DNA of 64,000 nt from Alphaproteobacteria bacterium (lineage in GTDB: Bacteria > Pseudomonadota > Alphaproteobacteria > UBA828): positions 736,001 through 800,000 of the forward strand of contig CBDCRW010000004.1 of the NCBI GenBank assembly GCA_965221125.1, in the 5' to 3' direction. Made by a program: the position numbers and the translations under genes. The notes under the pieces are model-generated. The model made no database searches and was not told the origin of the DNA. It saw only the letters and a list, made by a program, of their open reading frames with translations. Positions 10,121 through 27,014 of this stretch are shown here, piece by piece; the stretch's first letter is position 1; every line of letters begins with the position of its first letter.

Positions 10121-10189
10121 GTGAACAGGGCTGACGTCGCCGGTCGTGTCCGTCGGCGAGACCGAATCGGACCCGTCAGCAACGAGTGA
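10121..10189 (+). pseudogene. Degenerate HU gene 5' remnant
   Basis: VNRADVAGRVRRRDRIG versus VNKTEIAGRVADRIG at 27015; shared upstream TTCGTGCTAAC (10033 and 26943). Confidence 0.5.
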
Positions 10190-10711
10190 CAGGCGAGGAG
10201 GTGGGTGTTGCGGATGTTGAAGCCCGGCGACTACGGTACGATGATGGCTGTCCGGCTTGGCTGCTCAGCTTGCCGGGAGGAGCCAAGCGGGCACCCCGGG
10301 TTGACGGCAGGCAGCCTTCACGGCTACCGCTAATGTGGCGAATGAGGCCGGAACACGGCAGGGGGCGGCCATCTTGCAGTTGCCGGTTCCTCTCAAGGCC
10401 TCAACGGTATAGGCTGATCAACACTACTGCCGAGGGCTGACAGATGTCCACGCGCCCTTGCCGAGAAGGCAAAGTCAAGTCCGGACGTACACATGCCGGG
10501 AGTGCCTCCAGACAGACCGCGACGACCAGGGGACTTGGTGCTGCACGCGCAACCACCATCGCCCTGAACGTGCTGCCAAAGCGCTTTCGCGTGTGCTTGT
10601 GAACCCATCTCGCGTTGACGTACGTCAGATACGCCAACTCCTTATGCACTCACCACACAACCGCCACGTAAAGTATAGCAATCGCGAATGCACTTCGAGG
10701 AAACAGCCATA

Positions 10712-11173
10712 ATGACTTCAGATAGTCCGCCATTCAGGCTTTCCCTCTGGAAAGATTACGTGCCGCAACGAACACTTATTGCGACGCAAGTTGAAGGAAA
10801 TAGCCAGGAACCGAAGGTAATTGTTCAAGAAAATTTACAAGAAGAGATTTACTCGTGGCATACACTAGAAGATCCGTTTGGTGGTGTTACCGACTCCGAG
10901 CTACGACAAAAGCTTCGCCACGCTCTTGTGGAGCGCTTGAATCCGTCACTTCCACCGTCTCAGAGGGGTATTGAAGTACTCGAGGAATTCGCACGGCTAG
11001 CGGGAAAGGCTATCGTCGATCGTAAGGTAGAATGGGTCTGGGGACACGGTGCTTCCCAGCATAACGATGCGATGGTAGAGCCACTAAACTCCTTATTGGC
11101 ACTCAAGTTGCATGTGGATTGGCTTCTGGCCTGCTTCATTGCGCGACCCGGAATCTCGGTGTCGGTACGATGA
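10712..11173 (+). CDS. Hypothetical protein, first gene of the cargo cluster
   Basis: ORF 10688..11173; GAGGA RBS before ATG 10712; ATGA overlap with the next gene. Confidence 0.7.
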   Translation: MTSDSPPFRLSLWKDYVPQRTLIATQVEGNSQEPKVIVQENLQEEIYSWHTLEDPFGGVTDSELRQKLRHALVERLNPSLPPSQRGIEVLEEFARLAGKAIVDRKVEWVWGHGASQHNDAMVEPLNSLLALKLHVDWLLACFIARPGISVSVR

Positions 11174-13218
11174 TGTCCTTTCATCTGAATTCACCCGCAG
11201 AAGCAGAAGCGGCGATAGCTAATCTTCTCAAGGAGGAATATTCCAAGCCAAATGGTCAATGTTCCATTTGCGTTCGGGACGATGGTGCCTTTTTGAACCA
11301 AGAATGGCTCAATCTTGGTGTCCTTTACTTTCCTGACTTGCCAAAGGATTCCGATGACTTGGAAGAGTATGAGGCGTGGCAAAATCTTGTGAAACTCGGA
11401 GCGTTCGAGTGGCATATAGCGGACTATAAGGCGATCGAAGAAAAATTAGCGCATTTGCTTGGCCATGAGATCGGCAAGGGTGATTTTCATTTGGGTACTC
11501 TAACTCGCGATATCTCATGTATTGCGGTGAGGACCGGCTTGTTGCTGCCTACATTCGATCCGGCGGCGCTGGACGAGATGCCCTATCGTCGATCAACGAC
11601 TATCATATCAGATACATCTGGTGTAGTACAGGGTGGTCTGGACTTTGTTGCCTCACATCTGAGTCCTGCTGCCAGAATAAAGGTTCCTTCAATCGTGCAT
11701 ATGGAGTTGGTTGGCGCCGCTGAGAACTACTTTAGTCTTCGCAGAGCTTCTAAGACCAAGAATGCCGCGCGCCGCCGTAAGGAACTTGTGGAACACTTAA
11801 AGAGCCAAGGCGGACAACGCTCATTGCTGCGTCTGGAGCTTCACCAAAGTACGGAAGTCGAGCGCACGTTTTTGCTCGGCGACCCGCTGCGGGAAGCTTT
11901 TGCAACAGATAACGACCGTGAATTGTCTGGTCTAAACATTAGTTTGGCAATTAGGTCTTACGCAGACCGTCTAATTTTAGAAGCGGCCCGTCAACATCAA
12001 GCGCATATGGGCCCCGGGCATGAAGTGCGACTACTAACCGCGGATCAGGGTTTGGCTAGAATGGCGTTAGCAGAGGGCATCCGGCCTTTATATTTCGGGA
12101 CAATTGACGCGGGAAGATTTTTTGGCAACTGCTTGACTGGAAGAACTTTTGACCCGTACCAAGGATCGGTGCAAGGGATCTCAATAGCGACGGTACTTTG
12201 GGAATTTGCTACGGCGTTTGGTTCAGCGCGACTGCAAGGGAAACAGACGGGGAGTGAGTTTTGCGTTTCGGCGCTTGGAGAGGATATGTCGTGGGCACCA
12301 TATCATTCCTTAGAAGACCTGCTTTGGTGTCGTCGGACCAATGGCGCGCCCAAGACCGACCCATCCAAAGTTGCCAAGAGGGAGGCTCGGGCCAAGGGGG
12401 ATGATCACGGCGAGGGGGTGGCTAAGCGGCCGAGCCGTACTACGACCTACCGACGCTTTGATGTCTCGAAGTTAGTCCGGCTGGTTTGCGAGCTGGATGA
12501 CGTACAGAAAATGGACGAAGAGGCAGTTGTAGGGATTGTTCAAACGAAGCATACCCGAGGGTTCCAGGAATACGAACGGTTTTTGTTGTCAGGAGGATTT
12601 ATCTCAGAGTCAGGAGGAATTTGGACTGCGGAGCCTCCCCTAATGGATATGTCCGCGGCGCTTCGGAACGAGAACGTGGAGGCTGTTCGTGACTTGTTGG
12701 GCGCTACACCTTCTTTCAGCGACTTCATGGGACTGCTTGGGAATGCAGGCCTCGGGGAGCCGTTGGATACGGAGTTCGCCGGTCGGAGCTCATCCACCTA
12801 TCGAACGTTGGGCGAAATTGTGCATGTCTGCGCCGCGGTTCGGGGAAAGGGGATTTACTCGACGGCGACCGTGCCGGATGCAGAGGGCTTTGCGGAGATC
12901 GCGCTAAAGCGGTTTCGCCAGCTCGACAAAGGCGACGGGTTGGTGTCCACGGGCAAGTGGCTGGAAACGCTTGTTGCAGAGGACGGCATTCATCCCGAAG
13001 TAGCTCGGAAGCTATTGGAGGAAGCAAGACAAAGACGCTTGTTGCGAAGGTCGACAGAGGGATCGACGATGCAAATGCGGTATAGAACGCACATCGTGCA
13101 TATCTTGCGGGTGGTATCCGGTGTTCCGACGGTAGTTCCTGTGCACCTGTATAGGGGAGATTACCTGATTCAGGGCAAGGCCAGTGCGAGCTTGCGGATT
13201 GAAGGAGGCGATCAATGA
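11170..13218 (+). CDS. PIN-domain protein with long C-terminal extension
   Basis: PIN-type acidic motifs: IISDTS, KVPSIVHMEL, YADRLILE, LLTADQGLARMA. Confidence 0.7.
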   Translation: MMSFHLNSPAEAEAAIANLLKEEYSKPNGQCSICVRDDGAFLNQEWLNLGVLYFPDLPKDSDDLEEYEAWQNLVKLGAFEWHIADYKAIEEKLAHLLGHEIGKGDFHLGTLTRDISCIAVRTGLLLPTFDPAALDEMPYRRSTTIISDTSGVVQGGLDFVASHLSPAARIKVPSIVHMELVGAAENYFSLRRASKTKNAARRRKELVEHLKSQGGQRSLLRLELHQSTEVERTFLLGDPLREAFATDNDRELSGLNISLAIRSYADRLILEAARQHQAHMGPGHEVRLLTADQGLARMALAEGIRPLYFGTIDAGRFFGNCLTGRTFDPYQGSVQGISIATVLWEFATAFGSARLQGKQTGSEFCVSALGEDMSWAPYHSLEDLLWCRRTNGAPKTDPSKVAKREARAKGDDHGEGVAKRPSRTTTYRRFDVSKLVRLVCELDDVQKMDEEAVVGIVQTKHTRGFQEYERFLLSGGFISESGGIWTAEPPLMDMSAALRNENVEAVRDLLGATPSFSDFMGLLGNAGLGEPLDTEFAGRSSSTYRTLGEIVHVCAAVRGKGIYSTATVPDAEGFAEIALKRFRQLDKGDGLVSTGKWLETLVAEDGIHPEVARKLLEEARQRRLLRRSTEGSTMQMRYRTHIVHILRVVSGVPTVVPVHLYRGDYLIQGKASASLRIEGGDQ

Positions 13219-14336
13219 GCCTACGAGATAAGCTTCAGCAGGCGCGACGCTCCAGCGAGGGCTCGCCACGGGGGATGTTTGAGCGCTTCGGAGTAACAGC
13301 GAATCCGTTCCCTGCGGCAAGCCAAACGTCGGGGAATCCTCATTATCCGCAAGAAGAAGCAGATGAACTGGCGGAAACGCAAATTGCTGCGTTCGTAAGG
13401 GACAATAGGTCACAGAGCTTGACTGTCGTCGGTTCTCAAGGAGTAGGAAAGACGAATTTTCTAAATTATTTTGAAGAACAATTGACTGATGTCGCAGACG
13501 AATTAGAGGGTTACTATGTTGTTCGATACCTAGCGGATCCTGAAAATACGTTTGATGGCACAATTCACAAATTGCTTCAAGAGTTAGGCGCAGAGCATTT
13601 TGCGAGACTAGCAGAATCGTTGAGTGAGGATCAAAATGCGATACGAGTGGCACGAAGTCAAGATCTTCAGACAGCACTACGTAGGCTTGCAGAAACAGAT
13701 GAGAATGAAGATAGAGCAGAAACTATTGAGTTGATGCTGGCTTGGCTGTTAGGACACCGAGTCCTAAAGATACATCGGGAATGGCTAGGAGTGAATTTTC
13801 GACAAGATACAGTCGAGGCAAAAACTGCGACTTTTCGTGATATCGTAGAAGTGAGCAGCGAAGCGGGAATTCTAAAGGGAATTTTTTTGCTGTTAGACGA
13901 ACTGGAAAAGCAGGATGGCGTTTTGGGCCCGAGAGCAGTGGTAAGATACCTGTCGGCAATCAGGGCGATTATTGATGCCTTGCCGCGAGGCTTGTTTTTG
14001 ATGCTGGCGGTGACGCCGGATGCGCTATTGCGATACACTGCTGCACTGCCAGCGTTACGCGGAAGACTGGAAAATCAGGTAGTATTGGAAGCTTTGCAAG
14101 ATGAAGAGGAAGCAGTAGAACTGGCAGAGTTCTATATCGACAAGGCTCGCGAGAAGGCAAGGGAAGATCGTAATCGGAGGGGAGGAAGTGAAGAAATCTT
14201 GTCGAGGCGTAAGATTGAGAAATGTTTTCAGACGCTTTGGGAACGAGCGGAGGAAAGAGGAGATGACGGTGTCAGGCAACGAGAGTTCTTGAACGCACTT
14301 CATCTTCGTACCGAAAAAGAGCTGCGGGGAGATTGA
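13215..14336 (+). CDS. P-loop AAA+ ATPase
   Basis: NPFP, Walker A GSQGVGKT, Walker B LLLDELE, Arg-finger-like ALRGRL; ATGA overlap. Confidence 0.85.
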   Translation: MSLRDKLQQARRSSEGSPRGMFERFGVTANPFPAASQTSGNPHYPQEEADELAETQIAAFVRDNRSQSLTVVGSQGVGKTNFLNYFEEQLTDVADELEGYYVVRYLADPENTFDGTIHKLLQELGAEHFARLAESLSEDQNAIRVARSQDLQTALRRLAETDENEDRAETIELMLAWLLGHRVLKIHREWLGVNFRQDTVEAKTATFRDIVEVSSEAGILKGIFLLLDELEKQDGVLGPRAVVRYLSAIRAIIDALPRGLFLMLAVTPDALLRYTAALPALRGRLENQVVLEALQDEEEAVELAEFYIDKAREKAREDRNRRGGSEEILSRRKIEKCFQTLWERAEERGDDGVRQREFLNALHLRTEKELRGD

Positions 14337-14369
14337 AGCAGTGGAGACGAGTGATAGCCTAGGGATGGA

Positions 14370-15845
14370 ATGAGTGGTGTGAGCGAGGACGGGATGGCGG
14401 CTGTAGCAATCGAAAAACAAGATGGAAGCGCGGTCGGGAGAAATACGCCAAATTCTCAGCAAGGGGCACAAACGAAGAGGACAGGGAGGGGATTCGTGAT
14501 AAGCGGTGCTCCAAGGCTGGTAGTGTCTGGGCGAATTCGTAGGGAGTCCGAGAAGCACGATCCAGATCGGGAATATCGGTTTGGTTATGCTGATGAACAC
14601 CATTCGGAATTACCGCACGTGGTCAAGTTCTCGGGTGGCAGATCGAGTGGCATGCTGCTGTTGACACTCTTGGCAAATGACATACTGAAGGCCGAACGAG
14701 GGGATGTCGTGTTGTTCAATAATACGGCAAGCGAGCATCCCCAGACTTACGACTTTGTAAGAGAGTGTAAGGCAGTAACGGAGCAGTACGGTATTCCTTT
14801 CTACCTTGTGGAGTTTCAGACCTATGAAGACGCCCGCAAGGGCGAGTGGACACGGCTGCCGAGCTACCGCCTCGTGAATAGCAAGCCGTGGTCAGAAACG
14901 AATCCGGACGGGGTCCATTGGCGGGGCGAGGTTTTCGAGGAGGTGATGTCGTGGTCGGGGTTCGTGCCAAACCAGTTCCGGCGTATCTGCACGACTAACA
15001 TGAAGTTGGGTGCAACCCGTATGTTCCTGCGCGACTGGTTGGCTTGCAAAGAGTCGATTCCGCGGCTTGGACACTTCGGATCGGGGTGCCGTATAGACGG
15101 GAAGGCTATGTATGCGCGTCACAGGCGCAACGGCGGAGAGGTGCCCGAAGAAATCTACATTGCCAAGAAGCGGTATGGCTGGAGCCGTCCGTATGTCCGG
15201 CCAGAACAGCGATACGAGAGTTTTTCGAAGGCATGGCGACCGTTCGAAAACAAGTGGCTAGCGGGCAAGGCGCATGGCGACCTGGCGGTGTTTGGCAAGG
15301 GAGGCGTCGAGTATGTGGCGTTTGTCGGCCTGCGTTGCGATGAGCCCGCAAGAGTCGGAAGGGTGAAGGAACGCAATAATGGGCCCGAAGCATCCGGATA
15401 CGATGGCGAGCATGTGTACATGCCCCTCGTGGACATGCACGTGGCGGCAGCGGATGTGAATGCGTTTTGGGCCCGACAGGAGTTGGACCTATGTTTGCCC
15501 CCGGACAGTGGGCTCTCGAACTGTGTGTACTGCTTCTTGAAAGGCGGTGCGACGCTGCGGAAAGTGCAACGTGAAATGGCGGGCGCGAAGCGCCAGGAAG
15601 CTCGGCTAGGCTACGGTCCACTCGACGGGACGCCGTGCGACGTCGCATGGTGGCAACGCATGGAAGAGGTGTACGGGCGCGACCTCGTAGCGGAGGAGCG
15701 GAAAATTCAGTCGGAGTTGGAGCATGATTTCCTGGGCTTCTTCGGTGCGGGAAGCCGATTTACGTATCGGTTGCTCGGAGAAGCCGACGAATCGGAGTTG
15801 GAGCAGTTCGACGCCAGTTTGTTGCCCTGCGATTGCACGGACTAG
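14370..15845 (+). CDS. Cys-rich PP-loop / PAPS-reductase-like protein, putative Fe-S sulfur-insertion enzyme (alternative start 14394)
   Basis: KFSGGRSSG PP-loop, FNNTASEHP, RICTTNMK, GLRCDE, NCVYCFLK, terminal CDCTD. Confidence 0.8.
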   Translation: MSGVSEDGMAAVAIEKQDGSAVGRNTPNSQQGAQTKRTGRGFVISGAPRLVVSGRIRRESEKHDPDREYRFGYADEHHSELPHVVKFSGGRSSGMLLLTLLANDILKAERGDVVLFNNTASEHPQTYDFVRECKAVTEQYGIPFYLVEFQTYEDARKGEWTRLPSYRLVNSKPWSETNPDGVHWRGEVFEEVMSWSGFVPNQFRRICTTNMKLGATRMFLRDWLACKESIPRLGHFGSGCRIDGKAMYARHRRNGGEVPEEIYIAKKRYGWSRPYVRPEQRYESFSKAWRPFENKWLAGKAHGDLAVFGKGGVEYVAFVGLRCDEPARVGRVKERNNGPEASGYDGEHVYMPLVDMHVAAADVNAFWARQELDLCLPPDSGLSNCVYCFLKGGATLRKVQREMAGAKRQEARLGYGPLDGTPCDVAWWQRMEEVYGRDLVAEERKIQSELEHDFLGFFGAGSRFTYRLLGEADESELEQFDASLLPCDCTD

Positions 15846-15847
15846 AC

Positions 15848-16987
15848 GTGGCGGAACGGCCGGTCTATCTGGATTGTCAAGCCACGACGCCGCCTGACCC
15901 GAGAGTGGTCACGGCGATAGTCGAAGCGTTTGATGCATTCGGGAACCCACACGGGCGTCAACACGTATACGGGCGAACGGCGGCGGACGCCATAGACGTG
16001 GCTCGGAGTCGGGTGGCCGGACTTCTGAACACGTACCCCAATCGAATCGTATTCACATCCGGAGCAACGGAATCCTGCAACCTCGCACTGCGGGGCGTGG
16101 CGCGCGCCGCCGCTCCCAAGCGACGGCGTATCATTACACTCGCTACAGAACATGCGGCGGTGCTCGAGACTGTAGAGGATCTAGGACGACACGGTTTCGA
16201 GGCGATCGTCTTGCCGGTCAGGCCGGACGGGCTCGTAGACCTCGATTGTCTCGACCAGGTGGTCGACGACGAGACGCTGATCGTTTCCGTCATGGCAGTG
16301 AACAACGAAATCGGTGTGATCCAGCCGCTCGCCAAAGTCGCTTCGATCTGCCGGCGCTATGGCGCACTGTTCCATACTGATGCAACGCAAGCGCCCGCTC
16401 GCATCGAAGTGGATGTCGAGACTTGGGGAGCCGACCTCTTGTCGATTTCGTCGCACAAGCTGTACGGACCAAAGGGCATTGGGGCGCTGTACGTGGCCGA
16501 TGACGGATTGCTTGGACCCACGTTGACCGGAGGTGGTCAAGAGCGTGGCATGCGGTCGGGAACAGTGCCGACGGAGCTCGCGTGCGGCTTCGGAGAGGCT
16601 GCGGAGCTGGCCGGAGACGAGCGGCCTGCTGACGCCGAGCGGATGACTCGTCTTGCCGCCAAGTTGCGGACCGGTATCGATGCGATGGAGGCGGATGTAC
16701 GCTATTTCGGTTCAGACAAGGAGCGGGCGCCTGGGACGTTAAACTTTGGGTTCCCTGGGATCTCCGGCGACAAGCTCGTTGCGATGGTGGAGACCGAGAT
16801 TGCGATCTCGAGCGCCTCCGCGTGTTCCTCCGGAACTGCAGGAGTTTCTCATGTGCTAGCCGCGCTTGGTTGCGGCCGGTCTGAAGCACTTACCGGCGTG
16901 CGTGTGGGATTGGGCCGATTTACGACGGAGACAGACATCGAGATTGCTTTGACGGCGATTGGTCGGGCGGTAGGTACGGCTGCATGA
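15848..16987 (+). CDS. Cysteine desulfurase (IscS/DndA-like)
   Basis: YLDCQATT, FTSGATES, PLP lysine in HKLYGPKG, catalytic Cys in SSASACSS. Confidence 0.93.
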   Translation: MAERPVYLDCQATTPPDPRVVTAIVEAFDAFGNPHGRQHVYGRTAADAIDVARSRVAGLLNTYPNRIVFTSGATESCNLALRGVARAAAPKRRRIITLATEHAAVLETVEDLGRHGFEAIVLPVRPDGLVDLDCLDQVVDDETLIVSVMAVNNEIGVIQPLAKVASICRRYGALFHTDATQAPARIEVDVETWGADLLSISSHKLYGPKGIGALYVADDGLLGPTLTGGGQERGMRSGTVPTELACGFGEAAELAGDERPADAERMTRLAAKLRTGIDAMEADVRYFGSDKERAPGTLNFGFPGISGDKLVAMVETEIAISSASACSSGTAGVSHVLAALGCGRSEALTGVRVGLGRFTTETDIEIALTAIGRAVGTAA

Positions 16988-17000
16988 AGAGATTGGGACG

Positions 17001-19313
17001 ATGGGATTGAAGCGAGCGATCATCGACGAGATGAAGGTGAAGCAGCTGCGCAAGGCGGTGCAGCAACTGGAATTGGCTGTTGATAGCTATAGGGACAAGG
17101 AATCACTTGCCGGTGCTCTCAGAAAGTCGCGTCGAGCTACAGCCGAGACGTTGGTGGAATTCCTGTCCGAGAAGGACGTAAAGCGGCTGTGCGATCGTCA
17201 GGGGGTTGAGTCGAGGGGACGTCGGCGGGAGCTGATAGCGCGGCTGTTGGAGTCAACGGGTACAGCCTCTTCAGCCGGGGACTCTGGGGAGACGCAAAGA
17301 CCAAGGGCAGGAACGAACGCAAGAAGGCGCCGGACGCGGGGCCGATCGAGTAAGGCTGCACCTGACCTCCTGTTCGGCCACAGTACGGATCGTACTGGGT
17401 TCACGCCGGCAGGAATCGCCGCGTTTTCGGATCTCAGACCGGCTGCGGTAGTGCGGGAACTCATTCAGAACTCGTTGGACGCAGCCTTGATTGAGGCTAA
17501 CGAAGCCTGCGCGGTCGTAAGGTTTGAGCGAAGTACGTGCACGTTAGAGGAAATCCCGGGAATCGAAAGTTACCGTACGGCGTTTGAGCGAGCTGTGGAG
17601 GAGCAAACTCCTTCTGGTAGTGCACGCTCCGTAGTTGAGCGGATACGGCGGACATTACTAGAGGAATCGCACGATCTGCTGTGTGTTATCGACAACGGAG
17701 TGGGGCTTGACGGCAGGCGAATGTCGGCTTTGCTGAGTGACGGGGTGAGCGACAAAGGGGGCAACGCTTCTGGGACTTTCGGCAACGGACACTCGGCGGT
17801 GCTTCCCGCATCGAACCTCCGGTATGTGATGTACGGTGGGCTAACGGCCGATGGTCGCACCTATGGTGCCGGCCAAGCGGTGCTGGCGTCGCACCGGGAC
17901 GAGGGTGATTGGCGCAGTCGATCTGGGCGCGGGGTATATCTGGAGTCATTTAAGCCTAGTGCGGTCGACGTACCGTTCACTCTGGCCTCTGAAGATGCAA
18001 TCCCGCCGATGGTCGTGTCCGCGATTAACAGGATTCGTGCTTCGTACGGACACGGGGCGGCGGTGGTTATCCCGGCGTTTAATAACTTTGAGCACGTGCA
18101 ATCTTTGCGAGAGGCAGTGTTCAAGGCAGCTAGTTTTAACTTCTTTCAGGCGATTCAGGAAGGACGTCTGGTGGTGGAGGTGGAGGATCAGGAGGAAAGC
18201 GGTGTACTCGACACGCTGAGGTTAAGGGAAGTGCTTACGCCGTATCGCGACGAAATGCGCTCTGGTCGTTCGGGTGCGTTTCTTTCCGGACGAAAGGCAA
18301 ATGAAGCCTACGAAACTCTCGTCAATGGGGAGGAACACGAGATTGAGACTACGCAGGGAAACGTAGCGGTGCGCTTGCTTTGCCGGGAAACGGGTCGGCG
18401 TAGCGTGGGGCTATGCAGGAACGGGATGTGGATTACGGATGACCTGCCGATGTTTCAGAACGCGTTTGCGGATCGACAGCCATTTCAGGCGCTGATCCTA
18501 CTCACCTCGGATCGCGAGGATGGTTTCTATGAACTAATTCGAGAGGCGGAGACGCCGCTCCACGATAAGCTGGCGCCGAAACAGATGGACCCAGTTCGAA
18601 GAAAGGCTCTTCGGGACGCGCTGCGTGAGATTCGGGATGGGATCGCGGAATTGGTCCCGCCTTCGACAGAGGACGTTTACAGCCCAAAGGACATCTTGGC
18701 CTTTCAGTTTGAAGATGTAGAGGGGCAGGGGCGAGGTGGCCGCCAGCCGTCCTTTTGGGGCCGGGTGGGAAGCACTCGACGGTCGACGCTGGTGAGGCGG
18801 AAGACAGGGAAGCGGGAGGCTGGAGGAACCGGGGAAGGCGGCGGCGGCGGAGGAGGACGCAAGAAGCGTGAGGGACGGATTGTGACGGAGCGGATATTCC
18901 GGATCGCTTCGGTGCCCACCGACGAAGGTGGGCGCACAGTTCATGTGGAATGTACAGAGGAGTTTGAGGACGCAGAATTGCGGGTATTCGTAGACGAGAA
19001 CGTGGATGCGACTTGCGATCGGCAAACACGTGCTCAGGCGGCGGCGGTGTTGCTGTCGAACGTGAAGGTGGATGGACGCCCGTTGTCTGAGGAAGAACTG
19101 ATCGGAAACGACGACGGGACTGTGGGTGCGAAGTTGGGTTGCCTGCAGGCAAATGCGCGGGTCGTGGTGGAGACCGAGTATGCGATACCTGCAGCGGCTA
19201 TGCGTCTCCCAAGTGGACAAGAGCCCGCACTTCGGTTCGAGGTACAAAGCAGTCGACGGGTTTCATCCAAGGACAGTAGCGAAATTGATGACGAGGTGCT
19301 GTCCGATGGATGA
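17001..19313 (+). CDS. GHKL (HATPase/MORC-like) ATPase with N-terminal tandem SAP/HEH-like domains
   Basis: VVRELIQNSLDA, IDNGVGL, GTFGNG; N-terminal LSEKDVKRLCDRQGVESRGRRRELIARL. Confidence 0.75.
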   Translation: MGLKRAIIDEMKVKQLRKAVQQLELAVDSYRDKESLAGALRKSRRATAETLVEFLSEKDVKRLCDRQGVESRGRRRELIARLLESTGTASSAGDSGETQRPRAGTNARRRRTRGRSSKAAPDLLFGHSTDRTGFTPAGIAAFSDLRPAAVVRELIQNSLDAALIEANEACAVVRFERSTCTLEEIPGIESYRTAFERAVEEQTPSGSARSVVERIRRTLLEESHDLLCVIDNGVGLDGRRMSALLSDGVSDKGGNASGTFGNGHSAVLPASNLRYVMYGGLTADGRTYGAGQAVLASHRDEGDWRSRSGRGVYLESFKPSAVDVPFTLASEDAIPPMVVSAINRIRASYGHGAAVVIPAFNNFEHVQSLREAVFKAASFNFFQAIQEGRLVVEVEDQEESGVLDTLRLREVLTPYRDEMRSGRSGAFLSGRKANEAYETLVNGEEHEIETTQGNVAVRLLCRETGRRSVGLCRNGMWITDDLPMFQNAFADRQPFQALILLTSDREDGFYELIREAETPLHDKLAPKQMDPVRRKALRDALREIRDGIAELVPPSTEDVYSPKDILAFQFEDVEGQGRGGRQPSFWGRVGSTRRSTLVRRKTGKREAGGTGEGGGGGGGRKKREGRIVTERIFRIASVPTDEGGRTVHVECTEEFEDAELRVFVDENVDATCDRQTRAQAAAVLLSNVKVDGRPLSEEELIGNDDGTVGAKLGCLQANARVVVETEYAIPAAAMRLPSGQEPALRFEVQSSRRVSSKDSSEIDDEVLSDG

Positions 19314-20169
19314 GGTTGTGACAGAGGCGAGATCGCCAAATGCCGCGGTTCGGGGGCATGCGTTTCCGTCGCTGGAGTCGGGAAATACCTCTTTTCCGGA
19401 TGGACGATACGTAGTGGGATTCGAAGCTGGGGCTGACGCGAGTTCGTTTACTGTGAGGCATCGCATTGAGGGGGCTCCGCTGATTAACGACGTGATTACA
19501 GGCGGGCTCGCACAGTTCGTCTGCACGGTGGCCTCCCCAAACTCTTCGTATCGAGTAAGCCATGTGTCGGATGCCAGCTCCCACGTGATTGGTTGGCAAA
19601 GCGTGGATCTTGGCGAGCCGCCGATGTTCACGCCGATGGTAGTTGTTGCAAAACCGTTTACAAGGACGCTGGAATCGGCAAGAGACGGTGTCCACGAGCT
19701 CTGGCACGGTCGGACAGTCGCATTCCAACGAGGCATGAGGCTTGCGTTGAGCGATGTCGTGCTGATGCGTTCATCGGTTTTGAATATGTTGCTGTTCGAG
19801 CGGGATCCCGCGCTTTCAAATGGCGAGTTCCGTGTTGAGGCGGAGGATCGAGAGGGATTTCGATTTCGTGCGTATCTTGCCCCCGATCTTCACCAATTCC
19901 TAAGGTATGACACTGAAGACTTGCGGCGAAGTCACATCGTAACGCACATAGTGAGCGCGTGCTTTGGCGTGCTGAAGGCGGATTATGCGGAAGACGAGGA
20001 GGAAGACGGCGGTTGGCGGTCCTATCGCGGTCTCCAGGCTTTGGGGGAGATGTTGAAGGAACACGGTTTGCCGCACTGGTCAGAGGACGACTTCTCGCCG
20101 GAGTTGGCTGCCACCAAACTTTACCCGCACCGGGTCGATGAATCTCCCGGTTCAGCCGGAGAGGACTGA
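19306..20169 (+). CDS. Hypothetical protein, partner of the GHKL ATPase
   Basis: ATG 19306 overlaps the previous stop by 8 nt; beta-rich N-terminal half. Confidence 0.7.
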   Translation: MDEVVTEARSPNAAVRGHAFPSLESGNTSFPDGRYVVGFEAGADASSFTVRHRIEGAPLINDVITGGLAQFVCTVASPNSSYRVSHVSDASSHVIGWQSVDLGEPPMFTPMVVVAKPFTRTLESARDGVHELWHGRTVAFQRGMRLALSDVVLMRSSVLNMLLFERDPALSNGEFRVEAEDREGFRFRAYLAPDLHQFLRYDTEDLRRSHIVTHIVSACFGVLKADYAEDEEEDGGWRSYRGLQALGEMLKEHGLPHWSEDDFSPELAATKLYPHRVDESPGSAGED

Positions 20170-20177
20170 GACAATCC

Positions 20178-21056
20178 GTGTACGCTGAGTTCGATGATGC
20201 GGGATACACCAAACTACGTCGATCGCTGATCCGAAAGGCGGCCAAGGGTTCTATTGCTCAACGGTCGTTTCTTGAGGCGGTACGCGATACCGGTAGGTTT
20301 TTGGCGCACATGAAGGACGTCGTAGGCGTACAGGAAGGTGAGGAACTGGAGCCGCTGGCGGATCGAATGTCGGAGGCAGAGTTCGGGAATCCACCTTCTG
20401 ACACCGAGCGGCGCCTGTTCGAGGCCTGGGGTGGGTTGACACCGAGAGTTGCTTGTCGAACGGCATTTTGGGCACGCGTGACCTACCGGCACATTGAGAA
20501 CGGGCGGATAGAATCATCGTTCTTAGCGGCCAATGGTGGTGGCAACGTGAGCGGCGTACAGCGCATCGATGAAGCATTGAGTTCCACTGGCGAGAAAGCG
20601 ACTTTGGAGCTGGATAGATGCGTACGAACGGTGCTCAGGCGGCTCGGTGGATTGCCTGAGGCGCGCGGGAATCGATCAGTCTACGTGAACTGCCCACTAG
20701 CACGGGCTTGGTGGCGGGAACGTTTGGTCGCGGAGATGGCGGGGGACGATGGTGACGATCTGGAACGGCAGATTCGCGCCGTGGTGCATCCCGAGAGCCA
20801 ACAATATTGGGAAGAGTTGGTAACTTTCGTTGTGTCGAGAAACTCGGTGTTCGGTTCGGTATCGGTTCGAGACACCTTAATTCGCACCCTCGCCATGGTC
20901 TTGGATGATAATCCTGATTCGCCAGTGCGAACGGCTGATGAACTAAGGCGTGTATGCCGATCTGTGAGCTCCATACAGGCGTCGGTCGAACTGAGTGTCG
21001 TGCCACCCCAGGAGGTGCAAACCATGATGCGGGGAATTGTCGAGGCTGTGGCGTAG
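20178..21056 (+). CDS. Hypothetical helical protein, possibly DUF6339-like
   Basis: LTPRVACRTAFWARVT and CPLARAWW recall DUF6339 motifs from memory (unverified). Confidence 0.6.
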   Translation: MYAEFDDAGYTKLRRSLIRKAAKGSIAQRSFLEAVRDTGRFLAHMKDVVGVQEGEELEPLADRMSEAEFGNPPSDTERRLFEAWGGLTPRVACRTAFWARVTYRHIENGRIESSFLAANGGGNVSGVQRIDEALSSTGEKATLELDRCVRTVLRRLGGLPEARGNRSVYVNCPLARAWWRERLVAEMAGDDGDDLERQIRAVVHPESQQYWEELVTFVVSRNSVFGSVSVRDTLIRTLAMVLDDNPDSPVRTADELRRVCRSVSSIQASVELSVVPPQEVQTMMRGIVEAVA

Positions 21057-21067
21057 ACTGTGGGGGC

Positions 21068-22252
21068 TCATTGCACCGTGGTTTTGTCAGCACTCTGAAC
21101 GGACGACAGGTTCCCACCGATGCTCCCGGTGATCCGCGCGGCAGCGTTCTGGATGGAATCTCGGGCGAGGTGAGCGTACCGGGCGGTGGTCTGCACCTGC
21201 GTGTGACCGAGCAGCTTCCCGATCATGGTCAGGCTCTCGCCGAGCGCCAGCGCCCTCGAAGCATACGAATGACGAAGGTCGTGAATTCGCACGTCCTCCA
21301 GACCGGCGCGAGCGCGGATGCGGCGCCAGGGGCGCTGGAGATCGGTGATGTGGGAGCCCGGCAGCCTGCCGCGGATGACCCAGGGGTTGTCCTCCTCGCG
21401 GGGCACGGCCGCCAGCACGGCGCGGGCCTCGGGTCCGAGCGGCACGACCCGTCCGCCGGTCTTCGCGTCGGGGAGTTCGATGCAGTCGTCCTTGACGTAT
21501 TCCCAGCGCAAGAACTGGATCTCCGATAGCCGGCAGCCGGTCAGCAGCAGCAGACGGAAGGCGGCGACTGCGGAGGGCATCTCGCTCTCGGCCTCGGCGA
21601 GAACCTCGCCCAGGCGCTCGGTCTCCTCGGGCGAGAGGAACCGCTCGCGCTTGCTCTCCTTGTAGCGCTTGACGTGACGGCAGGGATTGGACCCGTCCGG
21701 CCGCAGGCCCCAGATTTCGGCGAGCGAGAACATCTTGGAGAGCACGCCGAGCGTCCGGTTCGCCTGGTAGGGCTTGTCGCGAAGGTCGAAGTGCAGCTTG
21801 GCGATGTCCTTGCGCTCCACGCCGGCGATCCGCATCTCGCCGATCGCGGGGTCGATGAACAGCTCCACCGACCGCCGGTATTCCCCCTGGGTGCTGGGCT
21901 TGCAATGGACGGGGACATACTCCTCGAGGAAGCGCCTGCCGAGATCGGCCATGACCGGCTCGGCCTCCGGCTTCGCGTCGGCATCGCGCGGGTCGATGCC
22001 CTTCTTCGCCTGGGCCAGGATCTCCAGCGCCGCGGCTCTCGCCTCGTCGGCGGTGATGCGCCCGTGCTGGCCGATGGTGAACCAGCGCAGCTTGCCGCGG
22101 ACGCGGGTCTGAAGGACGTAGTTCTTCCGACCCGACTTCCGGACGCGGAGGCCGAAGCCGGTCAGCTCCCCGTCCCAGTAGATAGTATCGGCGCCGTTGG
22201 CCTTGACGGCCTCGACGGCGCGTCTGGTGAGCTTGGGGATGCGGTTTGGCAT
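21068..22252 (-). CDS. Tyrosine integrase with arm-binding domain
   Basis: TGCRLSE, HDLRH, LLGH, TTARY catalytic residues; adjacent to the tRNA fragment. Confidence 0.95.
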   Translation of the reverse strand: MPNRIPKLTRRAVEAVKANGADTIYWDGELTGFGLRVRKSGRKNYVLQTRVRGKLRWFTIGQHGRITADEARAAALEILAQAKKGIDPRDADAKPEAEPVMADLGRRFLEEYVPVHCKPSTQGEYRRSVELFIDPAIGEMRIAGVERKDIAKLHFDLRDKPYQANRTLGVLSKMFSLAEIWGLRPDGSNPCRHVKRYKESKRERFLSPEETERLGEVLAEAESEMPSAVAAFRLLLLTGCRLSEIQFLRWEYVKDDCIELPDAKTGGRVVPLGPEARAVLAAVPREEDNPWVIRGRLPGSHITDLQRPWRRIRARAGLEDVRIHDLRHSYASRALALGESLTMIGKLLGHTQVQTTARYAHLARDSIQNAAARITGSIGGNLSSVQSADKTTVQ

Positions 22253-22441
22253 GGGACAAAATTCTTGACGTTGGAAGAGCAGTCTAGCAAGCTGGCAAAC
22301 TATTGGCAAACACTTTGGATGGTTTCGCAGCGCAGGAAAGGCGGCGCATGCGTCCGCAAAAATTATGAAAAGGCCAATATATCAGCAGTTTGTCAACATT
22401 CAGTCGTCGTCAGCGCATCTGAGACGCAGTTTGTGGTCACA

Positions 22442-22486
<45 letters not shown>

Positions 22487-22488
22487 CA

Positions 22489-22525
22489 GAAAACGCCGCT
22501 GATCCAATGGATTAGCGGCGTTTTC
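22489..22525 (+). terminator. Hairpin after the tRNA fragment
   Basis: GAAAACGCCGCTGATCC-AAT-GGATTAGCGGCGTTTTC followed by T-rich sequence. Confidence 0.7.
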
Positions 22526-22880: not shown

Positions 22881-24104
22881 CTACCCGTTGCGCCGATTAC
22901 GTTCCGCCTCTGCCATTTTTGGCGTGAAGACGGTGAATGTGTCCTGCATGATCGTCTTGTCCGCGCAGGGGTGATGCAGGCCCAACAGGTCGTTTTCACC
23001 AATTACCCGATATACCGTGTAGCCCTCGCCCACACCCTTCAGGCACATTGGAGTGATGTCTTTCTTGACGTACCGGAGGGTGTGATCGAAGCGGGTGGAC
23101 GAGCCCCCTCGGTCGAGCGGACATTCGATCATGGCCCTTTGCAAGCCGGTGCCGTCCAGGCCCTCTTCCGACTCTTCCGAACGGTCAACGACTCTTTCGA
23201 ATAGTGCTCGGCCTACAGTGACAACGCACGGCAGGGCGAATTTGGTCGCTCGGAAGAATCGATCCACCTCCCAACCGATGTAATCGGTTCGAAATGCCGT
23301 GATTAGCCGTCTCCCATCTGCCATGAGGCTGCCTGCGTGGAGGCGGTTCCCCAGCTCGATGAAGTCCTCGTTGTTCGAGCTTTCCCCGGTACCGATGATT
23401 TCCGGCAGGCGCTCCGTCACGAAATCGCACCGTGGCCCGCTGACCTCGAAGGCGTCGTCCAGAATGTCCATATAGAACTTGAGCGGCAGATTCCTGATCT
23501 CGAACGGTCGGTCGCCAGGCTCTTCGTCGTCCGCGGCGGACGTCCAAAAGATCGCACGGCCGGCGACAGCGAGGGCGGAATGGAACAGGCGGGCTGCCAA
23601 AGACCGCAGCTTCCACAACTCGTCCTCGCCGACCTCGTACAGCAGCCAGATCTCGTCTCCGATGCCCTTGACCACAAAGGCATGCTTCCAATCCCAATCC
23701 AGCCCGCAGTGCCCGTCTTGAAACAGCTGCGTGTAGAATCTCCACTCTGACAGCAGGAATTGCCGGTGGAACGCCTTGTACCATTCGGCTAGTTCCTCGT
23801 CGTTGCGCGCGCACGCCCTCATTGTCGCCTTTGCCTCCGTGGAGCCGCAGACGTCCATCGAGATCGATATCACCGTCGTTCGACCGCGGCTCTCCTCCTT
23901 TGGTTCGGGTCCGGGCAATTGCGCACGCAACTCCTGGAGGAGGCCACGACGTTCGGGTTCGGGCTCCCGGCTTGCCATGAAGTCGAGGCACCTCGCCATC
24001 CGCTCCCGATCGTTCGGGGATGTCACAGCAGCTTCGGCAGCACATGCTGCGAGCGCGGCGTCCCTGCTGACTTCGTCGTCTCCAGATCTCCCGTGCACCG
24101 CCAT
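22881..24104 (-). CDS. Class III nucleotide-cyclase-like protein, probably 5'-truncated
   Basis: SMDVCGST, KGIGDE, DYIGWEVDRFFR match the cyclase motif pattern. Confidence 0.7.
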   Translation of the reverse strand: MAVHGRSGDDEVSRDAALAACAAEAAVTSPNDRERMARCLDFMASREPEPERRGLLQELRAQLPGPEPKEESRGRTTVISISMDVCGSTEAKATMRACARNDEELAEWYKAFHRQFLLSEWRFYTQLFQDGHCGLDWDWKHAFVVKGIGDEIWLLYEVGEDELWKLRSLAARLFHSALAVAGRAIFWTSAADDEEPGDRPFEIRNLPLKFYMDILDDAFEVSGPRCDFVTERLPEIIGTGESSNNEDFIELGNRLHAGSLMADGRRLITAFRTDYIGWEVDRFFRATKFALPCVVTVGRALFERVVDRSEESEEGLDGTGLQRAMIECPLDRGGSSTRFDHTLRYVKKDITPMCLKGVGEGYTVYRVIGENDLLGLHHPCADKTIMQDTFTVFTPKMAEAERNRRNG

Positions 24105-24108
24105 GGCC

Positions 24109-25371
24109 TCAAGGGCGATCCAGGAATGGGGCCCTTTTGGGCGAAGTGCCTCGACAATGTCTGCAGTCTCCGATGCGCGACCAGTACGTGGCCGCCGTCG
24201 GGCGCACGAGCTTCGCGAAGTCGATGTCGAGCCGGGCCACCGTGGCTTCGAGCTCGGGCCGGGCCTGGGGCTCGAAGGCGAGCTGGCCCTTCACCGTGCG
24301 CGCGACGCAGGCCGCGAACAGCGCCTGCTTGTCGGGCTCGGGCAAGGCCCTGAGCGCCGCGAAGGATTCGCCATCGTCTGCGATTGTCAGCCAGTCGAAC
24401 GGCAGGTGCGAGCGGTCCGCCAGCATCGCCTCGCCCGGCGACCAGTCCGCGAAATCCTCGTCGTTCATGCGGATGTTGGGCCGGTCCGGGGTCTCCTTGA
24501 CCGCGATGTCGAGGGCGTGGTCGTGGTAGCCCGGCGCGAACACCGAGCGGCCCATCTGGAACAGCGCGAGGTCGAAGGCGGCCTCGAAGTCGCCGGCGAG
24601 ATAGGCCTTGATGAGCGCGGTGCGGATCGCGCGCTGGTCGTCGGCGTGGCCGATGCCGACGCCCGCCTCCTTGCGCGCCTCGGCCTCGCGGTCCCTGGGC
24701 GACGCCATCGGCGTCGAGACGGACGGACCGGAGGTGTGAACGCCATGACCGGCAGTGTGGACGTCGTGGGCAGCTGCGTCCGGGTCGTGGCCATTGCCGG
24801 CCGAGGTTGCCGCGCTGCCGGGCCCCGCCTGCTTCGGCATGTCCTCGGGCTTCACCAGCCCCTGAACGACCTGAAGCGAGCCGTCCTGGGCGACGGTGAC
24901 GATGCAGCCCGCCATGCGGTGGACGATCGAGCGGTCCTGCTCGCGGTTGCCACAGGCGATGATCGCCGCCCCGGGCGGAGCCTCGTACTCGCCGATCTTG
25001 CGCTCCAGGCAGAACTGGAAAAGCGCGACCTGCACCATGGGGACGGAGGACGGGAGCTCGTCGAGGTTGACGAGGAACTGCGAGACGCTGTCGGTCGGCG
25101 GAAGGAATCCGGGCGGCGCCCAGCGTGTGCGGCCGTGCTCGTCGCGCCACGGGATGCCGCGCAGGTCCACGGGATCGAGGAGGGGGCCGCGGATGTCGAT
25201 GTACTCGTAGCCGAGCCGGTCGGCGGTCTGGTTCGCGACCTGACTCTTTCCGGTTCCCGGGCCGCCCCAGACCATGCAGGGCTGGCGGGCCTTGACCAGG
25301 GTGGCGAGGACTTCGGCGAGCTCGCTCGGGCGCAGCGTGTAGTCGGCGGAGATGGTTTCGGGAAGGGTCAT
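24109..25371 (-). pseudogene. In-frame chimera: MoxR-like AAA ATPase N-terminus fused to a ParB-like protein C-terminal part
   Basis: WGGPGTGKS, LDEL, ACGNR up to VHRM, then AGCIVTVAQDGSL...RPTAATYWSRI typical of ICE/plasmid ParB tails. Confidence 0.65.
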
Positions 25372-25628
25372 GGGCGGTCTCCGGATGGCGGGGAAGCGGG
25401 GCGGCCCGGACATCCTCCGAGCCTCGTCTGAACGCGCCCCGGAAGGGCCCACTCCCCTCCCGTGGGAGTTGCGGCAGGCGGGAGAAGCGGGTTACGCGCG
25501 TGGAGGGCGACCGGGCGAGAGTCGGGGCAAGGGCTGGTGGACAGCAGTGGCCGGTCGCGAGGGCGTCGAAACGGTCGGTAGTGCCAGGCCCATTGCCGCC
25601 CCGGCAGGCAGGGTGCTAGATATCGGCC

Positions 25629-25919
25629 ATGCGAACCTGGAGCGACAACATCGAGGCCGTCGCGCGCGCCCTCTGCGAGAAGATGCTGGCGCATGACGGC
25701 GTCAGCGAGGAGCAGCTCGCCGCCGACGTCGACATGTGGTGGCACCAGGTAGCGGCGGAACTTGAGTGCGGGGTCATCGACGAGGCCGGCGAGTATGTCG
25801 GCGGCGAGATCGACGTGAAGCGCAAGATGGCCGGCTACCGCGACTGGATGCGCCGCCATCCCGGGAGCCGCGCGGTCTGGGAGACCGCCCGACACGGGGC
25901 GCCGCTACCTCGAAACTGA
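25629..25919 (+). CDS. Hypothetical protein
   Basis: 96-aa ORF with high-GC codon pattern. Confidence 0.6.
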   Translation: MRTWSDNIEAVARALCEKMLAHDGVSEEQLAADVDMWWHQVAAELECGVIDEAGEYVGGEIDVKRKMAGYRDWMRRHPGSRAVWETARHGAPLPRN

Positions 25920-26762
25920 GGCGGCTCGGAACCGCGCCGGGCGGTCCCCATTCAGGCCTCGGGGCGGGAGCGGCGTGGGTACGGCGCCGTCGACCGGAAT
26001 GCCCGTCAGCTCCGGCAGAAACTTCCGCGTGGGCGAGAGCGTGTGGGCGATTCGCCGTTCGAGTTGCGCGTATTTCGCGTAGAGGCCCGGACGAAGCTCA
26101 GCGGCGCGTCGCAGATCGCCGCGGGACGCCAGGATGCAGAAGCTGCAACTCAGCCTCGACATGCCGGCGGCGTAGGCCCGGTGCGGCGATTGGCCGGCGT
26201 GACGGATGACGCGGAACACTTCTTCCGTCGAGAGATCGAAAACCGGCAGCCAGTCGAAGACCTCGCGGCCCGCGACGCTCATTCGCTCGTTGCGCCGCCA
26301 GCGCGTCTTCCTGGCGCGCGCCGGGCTTTCCTCCGCGCGCATGCCCATGGCGTTGACGAGCCGCCCGCCGAAGCGGGGATGGGTCTTAAGATAGCGGCGC
26401 AACTCGCGCTGGATCGGGCCAGCCTTGTAATCGCTGGTACACCATCGCGCCGAATTCGAGGGCCAGAGACCCCGTTCCTCGACCCGTTCGAGCAAGGTCT
26501 TGCCGGACGCGACGGGGGCGAATATCAGCGGCACGCCAGCGGGAAGCGTTGCCTCGATATGCTCGATGGTGCCCGGCCACTCGACCTCGCCGAGCGGGGC
26601 GTGAACGGCCACGATCTGGTCGCGGGGAACGATCCGGGACAGCAGGATCGTCATCGCCTGCGAGTCCTTGCCACCGCTGGTGTTGATGGCGACGAGGGCA
26701 CCGGCCCGGATCATTTGGTTGCACCGCGGCGGCACGGGAACATCGGCGATGCGGCTGGACAT
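25905..26762 (-). CDS. PAPS-reductase-family (PP-loop) protein
   Basis: NTSGGKDS, RWCTSDYK, GMRAEESPAR, RLSCSFC. Confidence 0.88.
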   Translation of the reverse strand: MSSRIADVPVPPRCNQMIRAGALVAINTSGGKDSQAMTILLSRIVPRDQIVAVHAPLGEVEWPGTIEHIEATLPAGVPLIFAPVASGKTLLERVEERGLWPSNSARWCTSDYKAGPIQRELRRYLKTHPRFGGRLVNAMGMRAEESPARARKTRWRRNERMSVAGREVFDWLPVFDLSTEEVFRVIRHAGQSPHRAYAAGMSRLSCSFCILASRGDLRRAAELRPGLYAKYAQLERRIAHTLSPTRKFLPELTGIPVDGAVPTPLPPRGLNGDRPARFRAASVSR

Positions 26763-27014
26763 GGATCGGCCTCTCCGGTGGCGACGCGGGGTCCGCTCTT
26801 CGGCCCCCTGGAATCGCCCGGAGGACGCCGGCCTCGAACGCCTGACGCCGAACCGCAGGACCATGCCGTGCGAAACGCCGGAGGCGCCGCTCGGGCAGGA
26901 TGGGCGCGGAATGACCGCTGCCGGAATCGAAATGGCCGGCGCTTCGTGCTAACCGTGGGCGCCGGCCTCGGCTATGGTCTGTAGGGAGAACTGGACAACG
27001 CAGGGAGAGAGCGG

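Follow-up and report, generated by a model that had tools for sequence, protein, structure and literature searches.

A divergent PDC-M33 ATPase trio with a sulfur-transfer pair in the place of a DNA methylase: a candidate sulfur-marking defence cassette

What is a three-gene ATPase module doing directly behind two genes of sulfur chemistry, where its homologues elsewhere keep a DNA methylase? The question is raised by a 64,000-nucleotide stretch of an Alphaproteobacteria bacterium (lineage UBA828; GenBank assembly GCA_965221125.1, contig CBDCRW010000004.1, positions 736,001 to 800,000 of the forward strand), hereafter the window, in which a gene for a GHKL-type ATPase and two further genes (17001-21056) follow genes for a PP-loop enzyme and a cysteine desulfurase. 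A reading made from the letters of this DNA (the sequence-only reading) had proposed a possible restriction module paired with a sulfur marker instead of a methyltransferase. We find that the trio, judged by its sequence matches, is a divergent member of the uncharacterised candidate system PDC-M33, that the functional unit is formed by five genes (14370-21056), and that gene neighbourhoods confirm a methyl-to-sulfur swap of the partner module. On balance we lean, by a modest measure, towards the view that these five genes are one system that puts a sulfur mark on its own DNA and acts on DNA that lacks it. The five genes are as follows.

14370-15845, plus strand: g3, 491 amino acids (aa); PP-loop ATP pyrophosphatase of the 3'-phosphoadenylyl-sulfate (PAPS) reductase class, presumed sulfur-inserting DNA modification enzyme
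15833-16987, plus strand: g4, 384 aa; IscS/DndA/SspA-type cysteine desulfurase, presumed sulfur donor
17001-19313, plus strand: g5 (protein A), 770 aa; GHKL-type ATPase of the PDC-M33A family
19306-20169, plus strand: g6 (protein B), 287 aa; PDC-M33B family, with a beta-sandwich N-terminal part and a helical C-terminal part
20178-21056, plus strand: g7 (protein C), 292 aa; divergent DUF6339 / PDC-M33C-type protein

The end of g3 and the start of g4 overlap by 13 bases, a gap of 13 bases separates g4 from g5, and one of 8 bases separates g6 from g7. The ATG start codon of g6 overlaps the stop codon of g5, as seen in ATGGATGA; 19306 is thus most likely the true start of g6, and the GTG at 19126 proposed by the open reading frame (ORF) finder is probably too early. 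From this overlap and the short spacings it follows that the coupled trio is real, and the idea that a GHKL ATPase leads it was well founded, as the three ORFs are co-directional and the first carries both the GHKL motifs and a match to PDC-M33A.

In PADLOC-DB 2.0, PDC-M33 is a 'phage defence candidate' with the same A-B-C order, sizes, co-direction and tight spacing. A canonical locus was available from a search of 401 genomes of the window's phylum with the DUF6339 model; there, a DUF6339 protein (3e-40; PDC-M33C 8.5e-37) is preceded by a PDC-M33A protein (2.2e-91) and a PDC-M33B protein (2.1e-38). Protein A of the window matches PDC-M33A with an E value of 3.3e-37 (126.5 bits, residues 130-558), and no other PADLOC model at E<=0.01; it aligns with the canonical protein by BLASTP at 4e-26, with 30% identity over 361 aa. 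GHKL ATPases are defined by an N-box (ExxxNxxDA), a G1 motif (DxGxG) and a G2 motif (GxxGxG), which A carries as VRELIQNSLDA, DNGVGLD and GTFGNGH, all invariant among its relatives. Both the clade of the window and the canonical clade keep the catalytic residues of these three motifs (E153, N157, D160, D231, G235, G258, G261 and G263), and also RNGM (473-476) and E517/P519/H521. The family is large, with 2132 representatives at 50% identity (E<=0.001, among 1.84 billion).

The tandem SAP-like domains that the sequence-only reading had placed in A were not borne out. Window A matches no Pfam family at E<=0.1, SAP included, and BLASTP detects no internal repeat between residues 1-50 and 51-100; among 65 members of the family, SAP is found in 7 (best 5.8e-7), HATPase_c in 34 (best 7.8e-5) and HATPase_c_3 in 20. 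The N-terminal extension of A, of about 120 residues, is present only in its closest relatives and missing from most, and is SAP-like in some relatives. A match to the sacsin-type ATP-binding domain of NCBIfam is weak (E 0.0013) and below the cut-off. A search of the PDB with the sequence of A returned nothing and a search with its profile only a non-significant match to MORC3 (E 0.67); the C-terminal half gave a best score of 0.83 and no named family in the Atlas search, and no PD-(D/E)xK C-terminal domain was recognised.

The relationship of B and C to PDC-M33 emerged from their families. Window B has no match in Pfam, in PADLOC at E<=0.01 or in NCBIfam; a profile built from 59 orthologues nevertheless aligns with the canonical PDC-M33B protein by hhalign with 95.6% probability (E 1.1e-8, 210 columns). 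Its AlphaFold model (predicted local distance difference test, pLDDT, 89.1) shows a beta-sandwich followed by helices, for which fold searches gave only generic FN3/Ig-like sandwiches (best Z 8.2, root-mean-square deviation (rmsd) 2.8, 97 aligned). For C, likeness to DUF6339 (PF19866) had been claimed and is supported in part: the model matches the product of 20178-21056 at E 4.4e-4 but with 20.5 bits, under the gathering cut-off of 23.2, and matches 40 of 52 C orthologues at E<=0.01 (best 2.9e-10). C is therefore best described as a divergent relative of DUF6339, which corresponds to PDC-M33C, and not as a scored member. The PADLOC model PDC-M33C itself does not match window C at E<=0.01, and hhalign of the C profile with one canonical C protein is weak (E 0.039). 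The model of C is all-alpha (pLDDT 92.4), with no Foldseek match to a solved structure at E<=0.001 (E>=0.87) and generic helical bundles as the best VIA result (Z 6.1, rmsd 3.2, 75 aligned). In whole-genome searches the DUF6339 model matched nothing in the window's own genome and only one of the 401 genomes of its phylum, which means that the model is too narrow for the window's clade and nothing more. We also considered B and C as a single family, because they merged in clustering, and rejected this; the merging was due to fused ORFs, and BLASTP shows no similarity between the two. The window trio thus differs from canonical PDC-M33 in the identity of A, only about 30%, and in that the PADLOC models for B and C miss its proteins at E<=0.01.

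Does the trio belong with the sulfur genes? When species-representative genomes were scanned with an alignment of A homologues, 71 loci were found, spread by record titles over at least 8 phyla (47 Pseudomonadota, 6 Gemmatimonadota, 5 Acidobacteriota, 4 Spirochaetota, 3 Binatota, one each in three others, and 3 unnamed). Three of the loci had too little sequence and were set aside; the remaining 68 keep at least 2.7 kb upstream of A. A PP-loop gene is present in 67 of the 68, the exception being L065; in 62 it is on the same strand as A and no more than 3 kb upstream. A cysteine desulfurase belongs to the locus in 57 of the 68 and immediately precedes A in 52, and B and C are both downstream of A in 65 of the 66 loci with room for them. 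About ten loci (such as L057, L061, L063 and L068) represent a four-gene subtype, PP-loop-A-B-C without a desulfurase, with the PP-loop gene directly against A. In this they resemble the dnd and ssp systems, some of which lean on the housekeeping IscS, as excerpts of PMC12914056 describe.

As all 71 loci had been found through A, the converse was tested in the order that holds L017. Among 251 genomes of this order, the PP-loop and A profiles match the same 20 genomes, and all 23 PP-loop loci adjoin an A match, with adjacency taken from coordinates and two of them being split genes; the only unpaired match is a degraded A fragment. The four-gene subtype is commoner in this sample, with about 17 of the 23 loci (genomes G418-G651, assigned by score tier and spacing). 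The cassette is hence not rare, occurring in 71 species-level genomes and in 20 of 251 genomes of one order. Some genomes (L071, L017) hold two cassettes of different subtypes within about 6 kb, and in L071 a gene of the uracil-DNA-glycosylase family comes directly after C. The dense defence island in which the window cassette lies, with a LmuB-like gene, a type III restriction-modification (R-M) pair, an HNH gene, a second GHKL gene and a second PAPS-reductase-like gene, would be the natural setting for a chance juxtaposition of an unrelated sulfur writer and a PDC-M33-like trio. We find such an accident barely credible, as it is already contradicted by the linkage and co-occurrence counts: the genes keep their order and orientation in 62 to 67 of the 68 loci, across at least 8 phyla, co-occurrence is complete (23/23) in an independent sample, and the genes overlap or lie 8 to 13 bases apart.

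The unit is smaller than the sequence-only reading implied, because the PIN-like and AAA ATPase genes upstream (g1 and g2, 11119-14336), like g0 before them, have homologues in none of the 71 loci and are not part of it.

The suggested link of such trios to cytosine methyltransferases, from which a swap of methyl for sulfur had been proposed, was examined by tabulating the upstream neighbours in both clades. In the canonical locus described above, a C-5 cytosine methylase (PF00145, 1.7e-63) comes directly before PDC-M33A, B and C; it has 348 aa, with a match of 3.2e-80 to type II methylase models. When metagenomes were scanned with canonical A proteins, 76 loci were obtained, 51 of which include the N-terminus of A and no less than 1150 bases upstream. 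An orthologous C5 methylase is directly upstream of A in 50 of these 51, all but L128 (median gap 87.5 bases), and B and C are present in all 33 loci with room, while a PP-loop or desulfurase homologue is found in none of the 76. Conversely, a homologue of the canonical C5 methylase occurs in none of the 71 loci of the window's clade, where the neighbours are the PP-loop enzyme and the desulfurase. The window agrees with this: as had been noted, there is no methyltransferase in the cluster (Pfam, 10688-21056), and the type III Mod methylase at 27789-29666, beyond the integrase, is part of a separate type III R-M pair. The link to cytosine methylases was therefore correct, and the proposal that the mark was swapped from methyl to sulfur is upheld at the level of the partner genes. 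The flanks of the canonical loci hold no other conserved large gene; recurrent there are a Vsr endonuclease (16 loci; 1.7e-28 to PDB 1cw0) and, in 12 loci, an ORF of 87 aa that precedes the methylase and has no PDB relative.

Plasmids show further partners. A tblastn search with window A returned 17 plasmid records, of which 7 were examined. In all three from Ligilactobacillus salivarius, HsdS and an N-6 DNA methylase are followed by an 80-aa ORF, A, B and a 'DUF6339 family protein'; in both from Lactococcus lactis, the trio is preceded by LytTR and a hypothetical gene and has an AlwI R-M system on one side and AbiG on the other; and in those from Arthrobacter and Deinococcus, a dcm-vsr module lies 1.5-2.4 kb upstream. 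One L. salivarius trio (L153, plasmid p612A) is decayed, with A in two annotated pieces and a group II intron reverse transcriptase gene inside the B region. In a FastTree tree of 102 A proteins, computed with long-branch warnings and with the position of the root not known, the PP-linked A proteins are split from all others by one branch with local support of 100, and L065, the locus that has no PP-loop gene, nests within the PP-linked side. Being unrooted, the tree does not give the direction of the swap.

What product do the sulfur genes make? The desulfurase g4 matches Pfam Aminotran_5 (3.9e-71) and, in PADLOC, SspA (5.3e-129) and DndA (1.9e-127); it also matches IscS and DndA in NCBIfam, with scores under the equivalog cut-offs of both models. 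The PP-loop enzyme g3 matches Pfam PAPS_reduct weakly and under the cut-off (E 0.0013), and in PADLOC it matches SspD (2.9e-7, residues 194-227 only) and BrxP (2.4e-5), with no match to the DndC model at E<=0.01; a profile search of the PDB for a solved relative gave only a spurious His-tag match to 14-3-3. Of its 30 named matches in the Atlas search, 25 belong to PAPS_reduct clusters. In 54 orthologues the PP-loop motif KFSGGRSSG (S88, G90, S93) is invariant, and so are Cys133, Cys207, Cys385/388 (a CxxC) and Cys487/489 (in a C-terminal PCDCTE), cysteines that may provide an iron-sulfur site and a persulfide-carrying tail.

PP-loop enzymes that work with cysteine desulfurases also thiolate tRNA bases. 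One might hence speculate that g3 and g4 make another thiolated product, for example a small molecule or a thio-base of DNA or RNA, that the trio uses or senses; the weak matches of g3 to DNA-phosphorothioation proteins and its want of a solved relative would fit. We consider this improbable, as homologous trios pair with DNA methylases, which argues that the target is DNA, as most of the named matches of g3 fall in PAPS_reduct clusters, and as the genes that neighbour related loci belong to the world of phosphorothioates. Those neighbours are DndB (PF14072, 3.4e-23), in 6 related loci and in several of them directly before the PP-loop gene; a four-gene Pbe-like module (PbeA 5.2e-151, with PbeC/DndD-like proteins), in 27 of the 71 loci; and a protein of about 600 aa with GmrSD_N/DUF262, a domain that we take to be that of SspE-type readers, in 20 of the 71. 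A family of 492-aa proteins (c8) is found in 15 related loci. A sulfur mark would thus most likely be a backbone phosphorothioate, for which the evidence of the neighbourhoods is stronger than the matches of g3 itself.

The Pbe-like and GmrSD-type modules also bear on the role of the trio. PbeABCD is described in excerpts of PMC6459918 and PMC9239217 as a phosphorothioate-dependent partner of Dnd. One or the other module is present in 47 of the 71 loci and both are never found together, as would be expected of alternative readers of a mark. The trio may then serve the sulfur writer only as its half for targeting and assembly, in the role that DndD/DndE, SspB/SspC or BrxC have elsewhere, with restriction left to the Pbe-like, GmrSD/SspE-like or c8 proteins and, in the window, perhaps to the PIN-like and AAA pair at 11119-14336. 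Precedents are at hand. According to excerpts of PMC12914056, of the four established phosphorothioate writers, three depend on an ATPase partner, and brxP with brxC makes up the minimal set in type 4 BREX; in excerpts of PMC10853773, a DndD-DndE scanning core pairs both with cytosine methylases and with phosphorothioation. The mutual dependence of the PP-loop gene and A in the 23 loci, and the lack of any nuclease found in the trio, would fit as well. We nonetheless judge this explanation, the main rival of the one that we favour, unlikely, though far from negligible: the canonical methylase-A-B-C cassette stands by itself, its flanks lacking any conserved reader or nuclease; a C5 methylase of 348 aa, an ordinary stand-alone size, should need no helper; the Ligilactobacillus trio sits in the place of HsdR after HsdS and HsdM; and 22 of the 71 loci show none of the candidate reader modules, some of these contigs being short.

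Evidence of another kind came from complex prediction. The PP-loop enzyme, B and C were folded together as three chains, from unpaired alignments, in three runs with three controls. The complex of the PP-loop enzyme reached an interaction prediction score from aligned errors (ipSAE) of 0.79 in the three runs, against 0.00 for the best control, with a pLDDT of at least 81 for the partners and a contact agreement of at least 89% between runs; in calibration, 116 of 157 solved complexes attained the mark set for ipSAE, as did 2 of 215 mismatched pairs. The contacts named all join the PP-loop enzyme to C, with none for B: residues 62-76, 125-135, 204-206 and 246-251 of C touch residues 154-160, 234-255 and 299-305 of the PP-loop enzyme. 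Among the residues of this interface, E66, P72, P73 and E77 of C and D154, G234, H235 and H251 of the PP-loop enzyme are conserved within the clade. The models support docking of the PP-loop enzyme on the DUF6339 protein C, which would suit an accessory of the writer as well as a machine that unites writer and effector.

The latter is what we propose. The desulfurase g4 would hand sulfur to g3, which is of the enzyme class of DndC, SspD and BrxP and would write a sulfur mark onto DNA; protein C would plug this writer into the GHKL ATPase core, a core of the PDC-M33 family that elsewhere couples to a C5 methylase or to HsdS and an N6-methylase. Writer and core would then form one ATP-driven machine, in the manner of type I R-M and BREX, that both marks the cell's own DNA and acts against unmarked invaders. 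A competing reading follows the classical logic of R-M, with the sulfur genes as a protective writer and the trio as a separate effector. It draws on the self-contained canonical cassette, on the position of the trio in the place of HsdR on the Ligilactobacillus plasmids, and on the C5 methylase, whose ordinary size and type II-like character suggest that it should need no three-protein helper. The integrated machine is favoured over such a simple split by the absence of a recognised nuclease, by a writer never found without the trio and by the predicted complex.

Several observations weigh against the integrated machine. Sequence searches with A, fold searches of B and C and the residues of the three proteins that are conserved across clades revealed no fold or motif of a nuclease or other effector, so that of the possible restriction module with a sulfur marker of the sequence-only reading the pairing with sulfur genes stands (67/68) and the restriction part is not borne out. 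The Pbe-like or GmrSD-type modules could be the true readers of the mark, and the trio an accessory of the writer only. The sequence of g3 matches PAPS_reduct, SspD and BrxP weakly and has no solved relative; the predicted complex was made from unpaired alignments and three chains, conditions unlike those in which the ipSAE mark was calibrated; and the separation of the clades in the tree comes from FastTree alone, with its long-branch warnings. Lastly, both Lactococcus trios lack a listed methylase on their strand, in a PLSDB gene table that is incomplete and that omits two minus-strand ORFs (310 and 398 aa) upstream of the trio; the core may therefore act without a mark.

Among known systems, a direct precedent is type 4 BREX, in which, as described in excerpts of PMC12914056, BrxP, a PAPS-reductase protein, stands in for the PglX methylase and makes a phosphorothioate together with the ATPase BrxC. 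Here too an ATPase-based, multi-protein defence scaffold without a recognisable nuclease in its core has a PAPS-reductase-class enzyme in place of a methylase. The conserved cassette, however, has no PglZ, BrxL or BrxC and its ATPase is of the GHKL and not the P-loop type; among the genes at 10688-21056, the BREX type 4 gene set is limited to the BrxP match of g3 (2.4e-5) and a BrxC_BrxD match (7e-8) of g2, a gene that occurs in none of the 71 loci. With Dnd (DndABCDE, with DndFGH or PbeABCD) and Ssp (SspABCD, with SspE or SspFGH) the cassette shares a desulfurase, a PP-loop enzyme and an ATPase partner, and DndB, Pbe-like and DUF262-type genes neighbour related loci; it differs in its GHKL ATPase and in B and C, which are unrelated to any Dnd or Ssp protein model. 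Neither DndD nor DndE is found among the genes of 10688-21056 or as a conserved cassette member in related loci, where PbeC/DndD-like genes occur only inside the separate Pbe-like module; of the Ssp set, SspA is matched at 5.3e-129 and SspD only at 2.9e-7, and SspB and SspC were not found. Tdp (tdpABC), in excerpts of PMC12914056, has a writer of one gene only (tdpC) and a separate restriction pair; the present writer is never found without the trio (23/23), and it is set apart from Tdp by description only.

Type I R-M offers another likeness, as in 3 of 3 Ligilactobacillus plasmids examined the trio takes the place of HsdR behind HsdS and an N-6 methylase, and the predicted docking of a modifier fits a single modification and restriction complex; unlike type I R-M, there are no HsdR helicase or nuclease domains and, in the window, no S subunit. 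Tiamat, SACSIN-like and MORC/paraMORC GHL ATPases are placed in a defence context, often next to DNA methylases, by excerpts of a preprint (bioRxiv 10.64898/2026.09.30.754977). A is likewise an ATPase of the GHKL superfamily, with its weak sacsin-type match, and differs from these systems in matching no other PADLOC model at E<=0.01 and in having no recognised PD-(D/E)xK domain. The main text of that preprint has no mention of PAPS, desulfurase or phosphorothio, and that of the broad survey PMC10853773 none of GHKL, MORC, sacsin or SAP. Our literature searches found no paper on PDC-M33 or DUF6339 and none joining phosphorothioate, GHKL and cysteine desulfurase; on phosphorothioate and MORC, none was relevant by title among the matches listed. 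Neighbourhood tables in the supplements of the preprint or of PMC12914056 might list such clusters.

Four phosphorothioate writers are established according to excerpts of PMC12914056: dnd, ssp, tdp and BREX type 4. If our proposal is true, the cassette adds a fifth architecture, built on a GHKL ATPase core, and the PDC-M33/DUF6339 core gains a testable logic, with one trio that, according to lineage, is partnered by a C5 methylase, by type I M+S genes or by a sulfur writer. More tentatively, and with our own opinion still divided, one might go further and see here a fifth, mechanistically distinct DNA sulfur-modification system in which a GHKL (MORC/sacsin-like) complex replaces the P-loop ATPases DndD, SspC and BrxC, with DUF6339 as a universal adaptor through which writers as different as a C5 methylase, type I M+S and a PP-loop thiolase would connect to a single nuclease-free, plug-and-play immune core, spread horizontally through at least 8 phyla.

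Some record titles among the related loci name taxa that we take to be sponge-associated (Poriferihabitaceae twice, Porisulfidus and Entotheonella), and sampled words of 14370-21056 were found in sequencing runs at 0.31 in one 'sponge metagenome' and at 0.26 in one 'marine metagenome'. Sponge metagenomes are enriched in phosphorothioation genes, though 'not functionally complete', as excerpts of PMC5099237 put it; it is a speculation that a non-canonical system of this kind is part of that signal.

The cassette lies in an island of lower G+C content (about 10 to 38 kb) within host DNA of about 70% G+C, and its own region has 57-61% G+C. A scan of 10000-22500 for promoters and terminators gave signals not above those of shuffled sequences. 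The other features named in the text are the following.

10688-11173, plus strand: g0
11119-13218, plus strand: g1, 699 aa; PIN-like protein (PIN_4 E 3e-4, under the cut-off)
13215-14336, plus strand: g2, 373 aa; AAA ATPase (Pfam BrxC_BrxD 7e-8)
21068-22309, minus strand: tyrosine integrase, directly after the cassette
27789-29666 and 29645-32383, plus strand: type III R-M pair, Mod (MTase_III 1e-156) and Res (REase_III 3.8e-227)
32422-33426, plus strand: HNH endonuclease gene, after the type III pair

Genes g1 and g2 overlap by 4 bases, and the pair lies 34 bases upstream of g3. The PIN-like protein had no match when searched against plasmids. The pair may be an accessory specific to the window or a separate two-gene system, in the same position as the Pbe-like or GmrSD-type modules elsewhere. 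Further upstream are an SMC-type ATPase gene (2196-4274, plus strand) that matches Lamassu LmuB at 1.3e-28 and a Mu-type transposase gene (6727-8055, minus strand; rve, Mu-transpos_C).

Beyond the integrase, a second and smaller PAPS-reductase-like gene (25905-26864, minus strand; 319 aa; PAPS_reduct 9.8e-11; PADLOC BrxP 2.5e-18, SspD 1.4e-11) adjoins ORFs at 22881-25452 and could be another DNA-modification gene. On the minus strand at 33841-37876, a second GHKL gene (763 aa; HATPase_c_3 6.4e-12, no PADLOC match) overlaps a metallophosphatase/TPR gene (584 aa; PADLOC PDC-S60 2.5e-40), and the two may form another candidate defence pair. A segment of the integrase (21118-21536) is repeated with 71-79% identity 17 kb downstream, at 38409-38738, which suggests that the region from 21 to 38.7 kb is a second integrated element nested beside the cassette.

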